Source of the DNA: Escherichia coli
GTDB taxonomy: Bacteria; Pseudomonadota; Gammaproteobacteria; Enterobacterales; Enterobacteriaceae
Length of the DNA stretch: 64,000 bases
Direction: 5' to 3' (one strand)
Assembly (NCBI RefSeq): GCF_044324785.1
Contig: NZ_CP172127.1
Shown: piece by piece, positions 49,498-58,492 of the stretch
Numbering within the stretch: position 1 is the stretch's first letter
Layout: the number at the start of each line of letters is the position of its first letter
The notes under the pieces: generated by a model
The model's input: only the letters and a program-made list of their open reading frames with translations
Database searches by the model: none
Told to the model about the DNA's origin: nothing
Translations under genes and position numbers: made by a program

Positions 49498-51732
<2,235 letters not shown>

Positions 51733-52006: not shown

Positions 52007-52900
<894 letters not shown>

Positions 52901-52949: not shown

Positions 52950-52980
52950 CGTTTAGACGTCCAGATGTAAAGATGAAGGA
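52950..52980. promoter_or_regulatory. MetJ operator (tandem met boxes) upstream of metF
   Basis: tagacgtc cagatgta aagatgaa: tandem 8-bp repeats resembling the met box AGACGTCT, about 55 bp upstream of the metF start. Confidence 0.65.
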
Positions 52981-53279
52981 AAAGCTAAAGGGCGTCAACC
53001 GAAAAATGACCAATGATAGTGAGGAAAAATCAGGGAAGATGAAAAAAACTCATCTTAATTAGAGGCGATAAGAGATTTCTCTATAGCGCAATCCATCTCG
53101 CACGTTTTGACTAATATTCTGACAACACAGCGACACCTGGGCTAATTCGAAAAACAACCTCCTGCCACCGGATGGTGATGCTAAGGCATCTGATTCGGCC
53201 TGCGCTCTCACGTAGGCCGAATAATGGATCTGCAAAATCAACTGGTAGCAAACAGATGAATCAACTTAATACATACTTT

Positions 53280-54833
53280 TTACTTGATATCCTTCACACG
53301 CATACCGTTGATCTGTTCATCCGTGATGGTATTGCCCGCTTTGAAGTAATCAACCACGGCGTGATAAACGTAATAACCGCCCGTTGTGTTACGCGCTCTC
53401 CCTTCGGTGAAGGCGCTAAAACCATCGCCACCATCAGCAAGGAAACTCTGAGTAGCAATGTGGTAAACCGTCGCATCTTCAATGGGTTTGCCATTCAGAG
53501 TCAGCGAGATAACCCGCTGACCAACCGGCTTACTGCTGTCGTACTTCATTTCCAGGCCTTTCGATACCTGTAAAACGCCATTACTTAAACTTGCGCCGTG
53601 TTCCATCAAACTGCGTAATTGTTTACCCGTGAGATCCATCGTCACCAGTTCGTTGGGGAACGGGAAGGTACTGATGACGCCGCCCATCGTAATCGCCCCT
53701 GCGGGGATCTCATTGCGAATACCGCCAGAGTTGGTTAAAGCCAATTGAGTGTTTTTACCCGCCGCTACCAGTAAAGCGTCCGCCGCCAGGTTCCCCAGGG
53801 ATGCCGATTCACCATAGGCACGTTTTAATTCAACCGGCGATTTCGCGACCGTTTGTTGCACCACTTCATCAAGCTTTTTATTCCAGCCGTCGATCACCTG
53901 TTTCGTTTGCGGATCGGGCTTCCACTCGTCGGCGTAAATGGTTTTAAGCTCGAAGTTTTTCACCGTAAAATCATGCGGCTTCTCTTTGTAGTCGAGAACC
54001 AGTTTGCCCACATCAATCCCGCCACTGTCAGTGGAAAGGATGAGCGTATTGCCGACTTTAATCGGTTCCGGCGTACCCACATGTGCATGTCCGGTGATCA
54101 AAATATCCAGCCCTTTCACCTGACTTGCCGTCTGAATATCTTTATCCAGTGCGCGACGCACATCAGTCCCTCCCATACTGGACTGGCGGGCCGGAACACC
54201 TTCGTGGATCAGGGCGACGGTCAAATCAACCTTGCCTTTGAGTTCATCGATATAACGTTGTAGCCATTTAATTTCATCACGCGCTTCAATACCCACTCGC
54301 GTGGCAGCAGATACTGTGTCATTAAAGGCAAATACACCGTGCAAACCTATAACGCCTATTTTCACACCGTCTTTTTCGATGATGGTATAGGGCTTATCCC
54401 AGAATGATTTACTGCTGTTCTGATAAAAAACATTGCCCTGCACAATCGGGAATTTTGCCTGACTCAACTGTAATAATGTGTTGTCCCAGCCGTGGTCAAA
54501 TTCATGGTTACCCATCGTGACAGCATCGAATGGCATGGTATTCATAATATCGATAATAGCCTTGCCTTTGGTCAGGCTGCTGATATATGGCCCGGTAAAA
54601 TAGTCGCCCGCATCAAAAAACCATGTCGCCTTATTTTTTGCTTTTTCTTGCTTAACCAGCGTAGTGATATTTGCCCAGCCGCCAATATCCCGTTTACCGT
54701 CCGCAATCCACGGCACTTTATAAGGCTCTACATGTGCATGGAGGTCGTTGGTATAAATAATGGTGACATCTTTAGCGCAAGCCCAGAATGGCAGTGTTAA
54801 TGCGATACCCGCAGCAAGTATTTTAATTTTCAT
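53280..54833 (-). CDS. secreted bifunctional metallophosphatase / 5'-nucleotidase family protein (UshA/CpdB-like)
   Basis: 517 aa; signal peptide [20 protein letters not shown]; calcineurin-like phosphoesterase motifs (TNDLHAH, GDYFTG, MGNHEFD, GHAH) plus a C-terminal 5'-nucleotidase substrate-binding domain. Confidence 0.85.
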
Positions 54834-54892
54834 AAACAGTCCCTTTCAGTGAGATAAAGGATTGCTACATTACGTTCTGAAAGAGTTATTTA

Positions 54893-54908
54893 TGTGAGAG
54901 TAATCACA
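54893..54908. promoter_or_regulatory. perfect consensus CRP (cAMP receptor protein) binding site in divergent promoter region
   Basis: TGTGAgagtaaTCACA: both consensus half-sites with 6-bp spacer, roughly 60 bp from each of the two divergent start codons. Confidence 0.7.
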
Positions 54909-54965
54909 TCCACAGGGGAGCGTTGCCGGACAAAATCAACGACCATGTGAAATCGTTGGTGATAT

Positions 54966-56096
54966 ATGTCGACTCTGTTTACGATTAATGCCTGCAAGTC
55001 GTTTGGTTGCCGTAATTTAGGGCAGCCAACATCGACAGATTATAGCTGGCCCGACTATCGACTGGGTTATCCGGCACTGCACTGTCGGGCATGTGGCAGT
55101 TACCCGCCGTTGTTTGACGAGCAACAATTTCGTGACTGGTTGACAGTTCACTTATCTACTTTTGCAACAGAGAAAGGCCATTTTTGCCCGGTATGTTATG
55201 GTACAGATACGATTTGTTATGGTCACAATCCACAGGGTTCGCAACGCATTCAATGCCGTAACTGCAAAAAAGTATGGACACCCAAACAATATCAGAAAGA
55301 AATAACGACTCCCGAAATAATCGAAACGGTTGCTTTTCTCGTGCCATTTCAGGGAGTCAGCAGCGGGCAGAAACTGTATGTTTTAATCAGTTTTGATGCT
55401 CTTCGCGGTAATATTCTTCATCTTTCTACTAATTACACGCAGCATCAGGCTGGAGAAAGTCTGCATTATCGATACAGAGGGAATGCAGAACCAGAGTTAC
55501 ACGAGAGTAATATTGTACAACGCGTTGATATGCGGGAAGCACAATTTCTACGCCGCAGTCAGTTTGATGAAATTCAGTATGGCAGCGCAGCGCTCAAACG
55601 CAATGCTAAAGGTGTTATTCTGCGTCCGGTTATCACTGCACACGGGCATTTCAGAGTACTGAATATTTTATTCCCTACAGTAAAAACACATGTAATTTCA
55701 CACGAGTGTTTTTTAAGAGGTGCCATTATTACGGCATGGGCTGATCTGTTTCGCCAACAGCAAGGTGAGATTTGGTTTATTGAAGAGGAAATAGCTGACG
55801 ATACCGATAATATGCCCTGGAGTTTTCAGGGAACAACTTATCACGGCTGGTGGAAAAATCAGTGGCAACTTTGGGGTCAGGGCAAAAATCGTAAAATGGT
55901 ATGTGCATTAACGGGCGGAAAGAGTAGCAAAGCAGAAATGCTCTCTTTAGCAACCAGCAGACATTTTATCGACTGGCTACATAAACAAGCAGTATTTACT
56001 CACAGCACCCCGCTTTCCGCAGGGCGCGTTACGCAAATACTGCTTTCTCTGGCTCAGGATTACAACAACTGCGCCAGGCGGTTAATATCCGACTGA
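54966..56096 (+). CDS. hypothetical Cys-rich protein (N-terminal paired C-x4-C / C-x2-C zinc-ribbon-like motifs)
   Basis: 376 aa ORF; N-terminus contains C..x4..C, C..x2..C, C..x2..C, C..x2..C pairs (ACKSFGC, CRAC, CPVC, CRNC); no signal peptide; 3' end overlaps convergent metL stop by 37 bp; function not recognisable. Confidence 0.6.
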   Translation: MSTLFTINACKSFGCRNLGQPTSTDYSWPDYRLGYPALHCRACGSYPPLFDEQQFRDWLTVHLSTFATEKGHFCPVCYGTDTICYGHNPQGSQRIQCRNCKKVWTPKQYQKEITTPEIIETVAFLVPFQGVSSGQKLYVLISFDALRGNILHLSTNYTQHQAGESLHYRYRGNAEPELHESNIVQRVDMREAQFLRRSQFDEIQYGSAALKRNAKGVILRPVITAHGHFRVLNILFPTVKTHVISHECFLRGAIITAWADLFRQQQGEIWFIEEEIADDTDNMPWSFQGTTYHGWWKNQWQLWGQGKNRKMVCALTGGKSSKAEMLSLATSRHFIDWLHKQAVFTHSTPLSAGRVTQILLSLAQDYNNCARRLISD

Positions 56097-58492
56097 ATCG
56101 CCCCTGCGGTGACGTCGCGCCCCGCGCCAGGCCCACGGATCACCAGAGGGTTATCGCGATACCAGCGGCTTTCGATGGCAAAGACGTTATCGCACGGCAG
56201 CAGTGATGCCAGCGGATGGTCTTCACGCACCGCTTCCACGCCCACACGCGCTTTGCCATTGGCATCGAAACGCGCCACGTAGCGCAGCACCAGCCCCATT
56301 TCGCGGGCCGCTTCCAGCCGTTGCAACATCTGCTCGTTGAGTTCATCGCCGTTTTCAAAGAAATGGTCGATGCTACCGCCTTCGCAATGGGCAGGCACCA
56401 GCGATTCCACGCGCACCTGATCTGGTTCGATGTCGTAACCCGCTTCACGCGCCAGAATCACCAGCTTGCGCATCACGTCTTTGCCGGAAAGGTCATCACG
56501 CGGGTCAGGCTCGGTTAAGCCCTGCTGCCACGCCTGATCCACCAGTTCGGTAAACGGCACGCTACCGTCGAATTGCAGGAACAGCCAGGAGAGCGTGCCG
56601 GAGAAGATCCCGCTGATCGACAAAATAGTATCGCCGCTGTCGATCAGATCGCGCACGGTATGGTTGATCGGCAATCCCGCACCGACGGTGGCGTTGTACA
56701 GCCAGTGACGCCCGGTTTTTTCGAAGGCGTCGTGGATCTGGCGATATTTATTGCTGTCGCTCGCTCCTGCCAGTTTGTTGGCACTGATGACGTGGAAACC
56801 GTGGCTGGCGAAATCAAGATACTGGTCAGCGAGCTGCTGGCTGGCGGTAACGTCCAGCACCACTAAATCATCATACGGATGGGCGCGCATCCACAGGAAC
56901 AGCGACTCTTCATCCTGCTCGACCGCTTCATCGTTGAAGAAGGCTAGCGCGCGGCTGGCATCCAGCCCGCCATAACTCAACAGGCTGCGGCGGCTGTCCA
57001 CCACGCCTGCCAGCACAAATTCAAAGCCGGTACGTGCCGAAAGCGTGCTCTGCTCACGGGCGAACAGTTCCAGCCAGCGGGAACCGATATTGCCCTTGCC
57101 GAACAATACCAGGCCGATGCGTTTTTCTGCGCGGAAGACGGACTGATGCAGCCCCTGAATCAGGCTTTCGGTTGGTCCGGTGCGCAGTACTGCCACCAGG
57201 CTGATGCCGTCATCGGACTGCCAGGTAAATTCGACCGGCTGGCCTTTCAGTTGCTGCCAGAAGCGGTGGCAATGCAGCGGGTTACGGGTGACGCCTGCAC
57301 CGACCATCGCCACCAGCGCCAGCCCCTGACGCAGGCGCAGTTCGCCAGGTAATCCCGCTTCGTCGAGGATTTTCAGCGCACTGTCAGCGACTTCTGAGGT
57401 GTAGCAAAATTGCAGCAACTGGCGATCGTTATGCACGCCAACCGCCAGTGGACGCACCTGGGCACGTTTCAGGATCTGGTCGATCTCTTTATGTGCCAGT
57501 TTGAAATCCTGACTGGCGGGCACCTGAAACTCAATCAAACAGACATCATCGTGGCTGGTGACAATACGCGCACCAGTACCAGAGGCCAGCACGCGTTCAA
57601 TGCGCGTGGAGCCTTGATCCGGCGTGTAGCTACAGCGCAGTTGCAGGTCGATTTCGCTACCGGATACCGGCTGTAAAGTACGGGCGTGAAGAACGGGAGC
57701 CGCCAGACGCGCCAGTTCGCTGGCCTCATCCAGACGCAGCAACGGCAGCAGGCAGGCATCTTTCACTTTACGCGGGTCGGCACTGTATACCCCGGCGACG
57801 TCGCTCCAGATGGTTACACGAGAAACACCCGCCAGCGCACCGATTTGTGTCGCGGAATAGTCGGAACCGTTACGCCCCAGCAGCACCGTTTCACCGGCGT
57901 TGTTACGGCTGATAAACCCGGTCACCACCAGACGTTTGCCCGGATGTTGTACCAGTAGCTGTTGCAGCAACGGGTAAGAAAGTCCTTCATCAACCTGCGG
58001 TTGCGCAGCGCGTTCAGCGCGTAAAAACTCGCGGGCATCAAGCCAGGCCGCTGGCAGCCCTTGTTGATTAAGTACCGCAGACATCAGGCGTGCCGACCAT
58101 ACTTCCCCGTGGCCCACCACTTCCGCATACACCGCATCGTTAATACCACTGTCGAGCAACGCCGCCAGGCGCTCAAGATCGCTGACAAAAGCGCTAATGA
58201 GGCTATCGGCTTCTTCGGCGGGTAACAGGCCGCTAATCAGATCGCACTGATAGCGACGCAGCGTTTGTTGAACCTGATGCGCAGAGAGACGATCGGTCTG
58301 GCTTAGTTTCAACCAGTTAATCAACTGGTTAGTGGTGCTACCGGCGGCGGAAACCACCATCATATCGTCAGGCAGAGAGTACTCCGCCATAATGCCCGCG
58401 ACACGCAAATAACACTTCACATCAGCCAGACTACTGCCACCAAATTTATGCAGTTGACGACCTTTCGCCCCTGCCTGCGCAATCACACTCAT
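56060..58492 (-). CDS. metL: bifunctional aspartokinase II / homoserine dehydrogenase II MetL
   Basis: 810 aa; MSVIAQAGAKGRQLHKFGGSSLADVKCYLRVAGIMAEYS... Confidence 0.95.
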   Translation of the reverse strand: MSVIAQAGAKGRQLHKFGGSSLADVKCYLRVAGIMAEYSLPDDMMVVSAAGSTTNQLINWLKLSQTDRLSAHQVQQTLRRYQCDLISGLLPAEEADSLISAFVSDLERLAALLDSGINDAVYAEVVGHGEVWSARLMSAVLNQQGLPAAWLDAREFLRAERAAQPQVDEGLSYPLLQQLLVQHPGKRLVVTGFISRNNAGETVLLGRNGSDYSATQIGALAGVSRVTIWSDVAGVYSADPRKVKDACLLPLLRLDEASELARLAAPVLHARTLQPVSGSEIDLQLRCSYTPDQGSTRIERVLASGTGARIVTSHDDVCLIEFQVPASQDFKLAHKEIDQILKRAQVRPLAVGVHNDRQLLQFCYTSEVADSALKILDEAGLPGELRLRQGLALVAMVGAGVTRNPLHCHRFWQQLKGQPVEFTWQSDDGISLVAVLRTGPTESLIQGLHQSVFRAEKRIGLVLFGKGNIGSRWLELFAREQSTLSARTGFEFVLAGVVDSRRSLLSYGGLDASRALAFFNDEAVEQDEESLFLWMRAHPYDDLVVLDVTASQQLADQYLDFASHGFHVISANKLAGASDSNKYRQIHDAFEKTGRHWLYNATVGAGLPINHTVRDLIDSGDTILSISGIFSGTLSWLFLQFDGSVPFTELVDQAWQQGLTEPDPRDDLSGKDVMRKLVILAREAGYDIEPDQVRVESLVPAHCEGGSIDHFFENGDELNEQMLQRLEAAREMGLVLRYVARFDANGKARVGVEAVREDHPLASLLPCDNVFAIESRWYRDNPLVIRGPGAGRDVTAGAIQSDINRLAQLL

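Follow-up and report, generated by a model that had tools for sequence, protein, structure and literature searches.

A divergent gene pair between metF and metL of Escherichia coli couples a nucleotidase to an IS1-like protein, a putative regulator of nucleotide scavenging

In a 64,000-nucleotide stretch of Escherichia coli DNA from contig NZ_CP172127.1 (this whole stretch is hereafter the window, and positions are counted from its first letter), metF and metL are separated by two divergent genes. One of them, NT5 (53280-54833, minus strand), encodes a nucleotidase of 517 amino acids, and the other, ORF376 (54966-56096, plus strand), encodes a cysteine-rich protein of 376 amino acids. We read ORF376 as an exapted, catalytically degenerate IS1-like protein. 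What is new here is the identity of this partner, i.e., a conserved, selected, single-copy protein of IS1-type origin that is tied to nucleotide and nucleoside scavenging genes. We propose that the locus is a nucleotide-scavenging module under the control of the cAMP receptor protein (CRP), and that ORF376 is its local regulator, combining a DNA recognition derived from InsA with a dead RNase H core that has been reused; we give this proposal a probability of roughly 50%.

The homologues of ORF376 are named 'cytoplasmic protein' in the source annotations, and full-length copies are found in many Enterobacteriaceae. The search of ORF376 against Pfam, NCBIfam, and PHROGs returned just weak matches, located at residues 74-105, to the zinc ribbons of IS1, IS1595, and InsA. 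The match to the NCBIfam model IS1_IS1595_Zn (E 1.8e-4, 22 bits) falls under the cut-off of 28, and that to Pfam Zn_ribbon_InsA has an E of 0.02, but some relatives are closer to these models: eight of the 48 family members match Zn_ribbon_InsA at E<=1e-3, and the members P0141 and P0143 lie above the cut-off. When the family was compared by hhalign with residues 4-88 of IS1 InsAB', which comprise its zinc ribbon and helix-turn-helix (HTH), the probability was 96.7% (E 4.5e-10). In this alignment the InsAB' region covers the second ribbon of the family plus an extra segment of about 70 residues that the long members (400-520 amino acids) carry behind it, i.e., the whole InsA DNA-binding module. 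The long members also match the NCBIfam IS1 transposase model over its positions 1-81, the best of them at an E of 1e-9, and the AlphaFold2 model of one of them (P0160; mean predicted local distance difference test score, pLDDT, of 92.8) places three helices at residues 124-178, where the HTH is expected. The HTH that follows the IS1 zinc ribbon is absent from ORF376 itself, which shows a gap across the HTH columns both in the family alignment and in hhalign. InsA itself is a DNA-binding repressor.

ORF376 contains 12 cysteines, eight of them in two ribbons of the CxxC...CxxC type. The first ribbon (C10, C15, C40, and C43; 54993-55094, plus strand) has cysteines that are at least 90% conserved among the 48 members, and the second one (C74, C77, C97, and C100; 55185-55265, plus strand) is the ribbon assigned to the InsA/IS1 type by NCBIfam, Pfam, and hhalign. 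No Pfam model covers the C-terminal part of the protein, and it does not belong to any characterised family. The original prediction, a zinc-ribbon-like unknown protein, was right about the cysteines and about the missing family, and can now be refined to an InsA-type ribbon plus an RNase H-like fold. The family is small, with only 119 relatives among 1.84 billion representatives in an exhaustive HMMER search; those present in the AlphaFold database come from Enterobacterales, Vibrionales and relatives, and are often mislabelled 'IS1 family transposase'. The search of PDB sequences with the family profile gave only spurious matches to C2H2 zinc fingers. PADLOC did not match either ORF376 or NT5, and a role in anti-phage defence was dropped on this basis.

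The C-terminal part of ORF376 (55317-56093, plus strand) is predicted to have an RNase H-like fold of the DDE transposase/integrase type, carrying an additional beta-sheet subdomain as an insertion, plus helices at the C-terminus. The AlphaFold2 model (pLDDT 94.1) contains a five-stranded mixed sheet in the order b1-b2-b3-a1-b4-a2-b5-a3, which matches members of the RNase H-like superfamily structurally. Sequence similarity of this domain to the InsB core of IS1 was not detectable (hhalign probability 0.4%), and the family matches to the NCBIfam IS1 model end at position 81-85 of 199. Some InsB look-alike strings that had been spotted by eye (YAYDSLRK versus ISFDALRG, and HVIS in both proteins) were dropped given this hhalign result. 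The DDE positions were mapped by the order of the secondary structure elements and not by three-dimensional superposition: no beta1 column is more than 19% acidic, beta4 is followed by R/K and then P (R220/P221), and E247, after beta5, is 100% acidic. On this mapping, we read the canonical catalytic acidic residues as lost in ORF376. In the same region of the 48-sequence alignment, R197 and H228 are invariant and N156, Y168, Y205, P221, H246, W296, W300, and N367 are near-invariant.

These features could also describe a protein that acts on nucleic acids or nucleotides but not as a transcription factor, either a post-transcriptional regulator that binds RNA or a nuclease that has a non-canonical active site and serves to supply or sense the nucleotide pool. 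The RNase H-like fold would suit such an activity, E247, H228, H246, R197, D201, and D144 show little or no variation, and zinc ribbons can bind RNA. However, the canonical catalytic positions are not acidic, the InsA homology suggests the recognition of double-stranded DNA, and no known RNA element was found in the region, where the only Rfam match (E 0.78) is due to chance. We consider this possibility unlikely.

The two genes are ordinary accessory backbone, carried by a third of the E. coli genomes as well as by Salmonella, Klebsiella, and Citrobacter. By megablast, at least 80% of the query was covered in 1,837 of 5,426 complete E. coli genomes (34%), and the flanks were found in 5,425 of them; the site is empty in K-12 derivatives and in O157:H7. 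For the survey across genera we used one genome per species, a profile built from 10 close sequences, and loci mapped by tblastn. The pair was found at the metF-metL site in many species of Citrobacter, in Klebsiella pneumoniae, K. oxytoca, and K. spallanzanii, and also in Kosakonia, Phytobacter, Superficieibacter, Pseudocitrobacter, Escherichia whittamii and other non-coli Escherichia, Kluyvera, and Salmonella arizonae. In Salmonella enterica, the order is katG-metF-NT5-ORF(374 aa)-hypothetical gene-mscS-metL, and in Citrobacter two additional genes (LysR, CMD) separate the hydrolase from metF. Since the same site is occupied in so many genera, the pair is most likely ancestral at the enterobacterial metF-metL site and was lost in part of E. 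coli, including the K-12 type; the term 'inserted' used in the original prediction probably has the direction reversed. That prediction had also allowed that most E. coli genomes might carry the genes as ordinary backbone and that the 376-residue protein might belong to a well-characterised family: the genes are indeed common backbone in many strains, but ORF376 does not fall in such a family.

The segment has not been inherited strictly with its surroundings. The island of the window differs from that of Pseudocitrobacter vendiensis by a synonymous divergence (dS) of 0.27-0.34, and metF and metL by 0.75-1.13, which suggests that the island has been exchanged laterally, by way of recombination in the conserved DNA on either side. 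The best island match among the complete E. coli genomes is 97.8% identical, and some E. coli alleles are about 91% identical. The tblastn searches of plasmid and phage collections also returned matches, in 'plasmids' of 4.9 Mb, in Salmonella contigs of 80-194 kb, in Salmonella whole-genome shotgun contigs, and in short fragments filed as 'Escherichia phage ECO95'; these records are mislabelled chromosomes or chromosomal contigs, and thus they do not provide any evidence of mobility.

It could be argued from such data that ORF376 is still a transposase or a recombinase, and that the 3 kb between metF and metL are a mobile element of its own, inserted there together with cargo. The IS1-type N-terminus and the transposase fold agree with this idea, as do the presence of the module in more than one genomic context, the closeness of the island to that of Pseudocitrobacter, and the GC content, which is 45% in the ORF376 gene and 48% in the NT5 gene against 53-58% in metF and metL. 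Nevertheless, a repeat search of the window did not find terminal inverted or direct repeats at the segment boundaries, and the same site is filled across many genera. The homologue is present in one copy per genome, or as two diverged paralogues with 58-70% identity, and identical multi-copy insertions were not seen among the genomes surveyed. In addition, the catalytic positions are degenerate, the plasmid and phage records are chromosomal, and homologous recombination through metL and metF accounts for the exchange of the island. An active element is thus very improbable here.

ORF376 is under purifying selection, with a ratio of nonsynonymous to synonymous substitution rates (dN/dS) of 0.09-0.16, where dS is saturated. 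Its homologues are 58-95% identical across genera, and those of the nucleotidase 87-98%. The E. coli ORF376 shares 70-78% identity with paralogues of a second, Tsx-type context in Enterobacter and Klebsiella sp., but only 58-63% with the syntenic copies of Citrobacter and Klebsiella. The homologue is matched only partially in Salmonella arizonae (L046) and Kluyvera genomosp. 3 (L045), where little or nothing is missing from the nucleotidase gene; the two partial copies may be pseudogenes, and would then show that the enzyme can persist without its partner. Such truncations, together with the shorter ORF376 variants of some E. coli strains and the loss of the pair from two thirds of the E. coli genomes, are what would be expected of a decaying relic without a current function. 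This explanation is hardly credible for a protein that is full length in dozens of species, that shows the dN/dS values given above, and that has a confidently predicted fold with invariant residues.

Among the 36 genome loci compared, which come from more than 12 genera, 35 have the ORF376 homologue head-to-head with an NT5 homologue at a spacing of 132-145 bp; in the remaining one, the contig ends within the locus. At least two unrelated contexts are represented, namely the metF-metL site and a second locus that carries Tsx and additional nucleotidases. The latter is found in Enterobacter, Klebsiella sp., and some Escherichia, with one or two further nucleotidases. In two Escherichia loci (L022 and L042) and in L005, L007, L020, and L043, the homologue of this paralogous module is 65-78% identical to ORF376, and some strains have both modules.

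We have also chosen ten distant members of the family, with 21-40% identity, blind to their neighbours. Nine of them could be read (P0183 has no contig on record), and all nine adjoin nucleotide or nucleoside genes. Three of these members (L008, L012, and L051) lie beside a 5'-nucleotidase, and L009 beside a porin, a class B acid phosphatase, and a class II cyclic nucleoside monophosphate phosphodiesterase. The neighbours of L049 are NupC and a nucleoside phosphorylase, and L054 has a phosphorylase alone. L055 has a phosphorylase together with a DeoB-like mutase and a NupG-like symporter. In L053, Tsx and adenosine deaminase lie to one side, and NupC, a transaldolase, a phosphorylase, and a DeoB-like mutase to the other. 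Fold and cellular location vary among the partners and the pathway is constant, and therefore a pathway regulator fits better than a partner specific for one enzyme. We would extend this, more tentatively and at somewhat less than even odds, to the whole gammaproteobacterial family, whose members would be domesticated DDE transposases of IS1 type turned into dedicated, possibly nucleoside- or nucleotide-sensing, transcription factors of scavenging loci, with the dead core as the sensor or oligomerisation domain.

The same observations bear on another explanation, in which ORF376 inhibits or escorts the nucleotidase in the cytoplasm, binding its precursor before export and protecting the nucleotide pools. 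A parallel would be the classical inhibitor of E. coli UshA, an intracellular protein known since the 1960s. The strict head-to-head pairing and the shared CRP site would co-express both genes, the HTH is missing in the ORF376 clade, and ORF376 evolves faster than the enzyme, all of which would be compatible with an inhibitor. However, some members lie beside loci without any secreted phosphoesterase, containing NupC/NupG and cytoplasmic nucleoside phosphorylases, others adjoin enzymes of unrelated folds (class B acid phosphatase, phosphodiesterase II), and the domains of ORF376 are of nucleic-acid-binding types. We regard an inhibitor as quite improbable. A 25%-identical paralogue of 414 amino acids, annotated as 'cytoplasmic protein', was also observed between mokC and nhaA in E. 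coli CP099174.1 (L056), just downstream of a sulfatase-like hydrolase of the alkaline-phosphatase superfamily, and the family may pair with other secreted hydrolases too.

NT5 and ORF376 are separated by a control region of 132 bp (54834-54965), which we have aligned in 27 distinct versions from more than ten genera. The region contains blocks that are at least 95% conserved, even though the flanking genes have reached saturation at synonymous positions (dS >1). In a position central to both genes there is a perfect CRP core, TGTGA-N6-TCACA (TGTGAgagtaaTCACA; 54893-54908), which is the sole perfect one in the window (0.02 expected). The core has the same position in all 31 other loci aligned, with 0-2 mismatches, including three loci whose homologue is only 37-40% identical. 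At the level of sequence, this core agrees with the catabolite control of a shared promoter that had been predicted. The conserved blocks are GCTACnTTACGTTCTGAAAG on the NT5 side and CAAAATCAACGACC and AAATCGTTGGT on the ORF376 side. A candidate -10 element of ORF376, CAAAAT (54931-54936, plus strand), lies within the block CAAAATCA, also at least 95% conserved, and would place the CRP centre near -42; a candidate -10 element of NT5, TAATGT (54868-54873, minus strand), lies within GCTACnTTACGTTCTGAAAG and would place it near -40. Counted from these putative elements, the CRP centre is at about -40 to -43 for both genes. A consensus promoter scanner did not call the CAAAAT element, as would be expected if this is a class II CRP promoter lacking a -35 element.

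Two inverted repeats flank the CRP core. The first one, CAACGA-N10-TCGTTG (54937-54958), lies at the predicted transcription start and 5' untranslated region of ORF376, and has constant arms and a variable spacer in 22 loci; its right arm, AATCGTTGG, is found in the same place in every close locus but the truncated one of S. arizonae. The second one, CTTTCAG-N27-CTGAAAG (54843-54883), brackets the candidate -10 element and 5' untranslated region of NT5; it was found in 30 loci, and both of its arms are at least 95% conserved. We propose both repeats as candidate operators. An RNA hairpin was rejected for the first repeat, since its left arm varies (CACCGA, CAGCGA) without matching changes in the right one.

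The gene content and distribution of the module, the fold, InsA homology, and purifying selection of ORF376, the linkage, and the conservation of the CRP core come from the data presented here; within the proposed module, we infer CRP activation, the promoter positions, DNA binding by ORF376, any ligand of this protein, and the substrate range of NT5. When glucose is scarce, cAMP-CRP would occupy the single central site and activate both divergent promoters from about -41, in a class II geometry. NT5 would be exported by the Sec system and would dephosphorylate nucleoside monophosphates in the periplasm, and the nucleosides and phosphate released could then be taken up. ORF376 would stay in the cytoplasm and regulate the adjacent nucleotidase gene and itself, with the conserved repeats on both sides of the CRP core as its targets. 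Its dead RNase H-like core may have been reused for dimerisation or for ligand sensing, and a nucleoside or a nucleotide would be a plausible ligand.

Several points weigh against this proposal. Firstly, and most importantly, the clade of E. coli, Citrobacter, Klebsiella, and Enterobacter to which ORF376 belongs does not have the HTH segment of about 70 residues, and DNA binding would thus depend on the zinc ribbons alone. Secondly, D144, D201, and E247 are conserved acidic residues that might form a non-canonical site. Thirdly, the close loci share ancestry, and the 35 head-to-head adjacencies are not independent observations. In addition, the inverted repeats overlap promoter and Shine-Dalgarno elements that would be conserved anyway, so that their conservation alone does not prove that they are operators. 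Finally, nothing on the ORF376 family was found in the literature searched, from a library that is incomplete.

The NT5 gene is already known and ordinary. Its product contains the Pfam domains Metallophos (1e-12) and 5_nucleotid_C (7e-39), and the metallophosphatase motifs are all present, i.e., NDLHAH (residue 29), GD (76), GNHE (108), H (210), and GHAH (248). NT5 matches PDB chain 3ivd_A over residues 19-517 (E=0, 1109 bits), and on this match it is the protein crystallised as 3IVD/3IVE under the name 'Nucleotidase'. We take these entries to be structural-genomics depositions of c4898 from strain CFT073, with uridine and cytidine bound; neither a paper nor published biochemistry on this protein was found in the literature search. 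According to the A-x-A rule, residues 1-20 are a predicted Sec signal peptide with cleavage before KD (54774-54833, minus strand), and the crystallised chain begins at residue 19. NT5 would then be a Sec-exported periplasmic 5'-nucleotidase. Its dN/dS is 0.02-0.05. The original prediction of a secreted UshA-like phosphoesterase is supported by the signal-like N-terminus and by the membership in the 5'-nucleotidase superfamily, but the UshA label is loose. In fact, NT5 scores 151 bits against the UshA equivalog model NF007109 of NCBIfam, whose cut-off is 600, a result that rules out an UshA orthologue, and it also falls far under the equivalog cut-offs of CpdB, NadN, and SoxB.

According to the ORF listing, the genes of this part of the window include katG (49498-51717, minus strand), metF (52007-52897, minus strand), NT5, ORF376, metL (56060-58492, minus strand), metB, and metJ. 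The layout originally described, i.e., two extra divergent genes of about 3 kb between metF and metL, with the metF met boxes retained and the unknown reading frame ending 37 bp inside the 3' end of metL, was confirmed in its three parts. By BLAST, the homology to an empty-site E. coli genome of K-12 type (L002) stops at 53052 and restarts at 56059, leaving a segment of 3,006 bp (53053-56058) without counterpart; in its place, this genome has 194 unrelated bp including a sequence resembling repetitive extragenic palindromes (REP). A 45-residue 'hypothetical protein' is annotated there beside the REP-like sequence (positions 1674-1808 of L002), with the first 80 bases of its reading frame in DNA common with the window and the remainder within the 194-bp replacement. 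Upstream of metF there are three tandem met-box-like octamers, AGACGTCC, AGATGTAA, and AGATGAAG (52955-52978), which fall in a stretch 98% identical to the empty-site genome. At the other end, ORF376 and metL are convergent and overlap by 37 bp (56060-56096), both in the ORF listing and in the sequence as read. The final 12 codons of ORF376 are antisense metL DNA, common to the empty-site genomes, and the protein tail beyond Y366-N367 is not conserved in the 48-sequence alignment. Directly downstream of the metL stop codon, within the 3' end of ORF376, an imperfect inverted repeat of 27 nt (55987-56045, minus strand) is a possible metL terminator. A hairpin with a perfect stem of 12 bp, ATTCGGCCTGCG...CGTAGGCCGAAT (53193-53222), was also observed about 60 nt past the NT5 stop codon, and may represent either a terminator or what is left of a REP-like element.

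The interpretation of ORF376 as an exapted IS1-like protein linked to scavenging was not found in the literature searched, whose coverage is incomplete, so that prior work is possible. Compared with InsA and InsAB' of IS1, the second ribbon of ORF376 is homologous to InsA, and so is the following HTH in the long members; the order of zinc ribbon, HTH, and RNase H-like core in the family mirrors that of InsAB'. In contrast to them, ORF376 has an extra N-terminal zinc ribbon, and its C-terminal domain is about twice the size of the InsB core, with an inserted beta subdomain, no sequence similarity to InsB, and non-acidic residues at the canonical D/D positions. Moreover, its gene lacks inverted repeats, is single-copy, syntenic, and under purifying selection, and its clade has lost the HTH. 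As for NT5, the two-domain architecture of metallophosphatase plus 5_nucleotid_C and the metal-binding motifs are common to 3IVD/3IVE and, more distantly, to UshA, the Thermus 5'-nucleotidase (2Z1A), and CD73, although NT5 is not an orthologue of UshA.

The genes found beside the family members (tsx, nupC, nupG, and deo-type phosphorylase and mutase) are of the class that CytR and DeoR control together with cAMP-CRP in E. coli, and CRP is a likely co-factor at the ORF376/NT5 promoter too. Nevertheless, the fold of ORF376 is unrelated to the LacI and DeoR families and its regulatory role is putative; CytR works between tandem CRP sites, whereas the NT5/ORF376 region has one central CRP site. 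If ORF376 is a regulator, it would represent a new fold among bacterial transcription factors and a clear bacterial case of DDE-transposase exaptation, and it would explain how gut and urinary pathogens control a branch of nucleotide scavenging that does not depend on CytR.

Regulators derived from transposon proteins exist elsewhere, such as those of the FHY3/FAR1 and CENP-B types in eukaryotes and TldR, derived from TnpB, in bacteria. To our knowledge, no bacterial transcription factor derived from a DDE transposase has been described, and the ORF376 family would be the first. By analogy, the concept would be the same in all these cases, i.e., a DNA-binding transposon protein with an inactivated nuclease core turned into a host regulator, but the ancestors differ, being Mutator, pogo, and TnpB in the former and an IS1-like element for ORF376, and TldR is RNA-guided.

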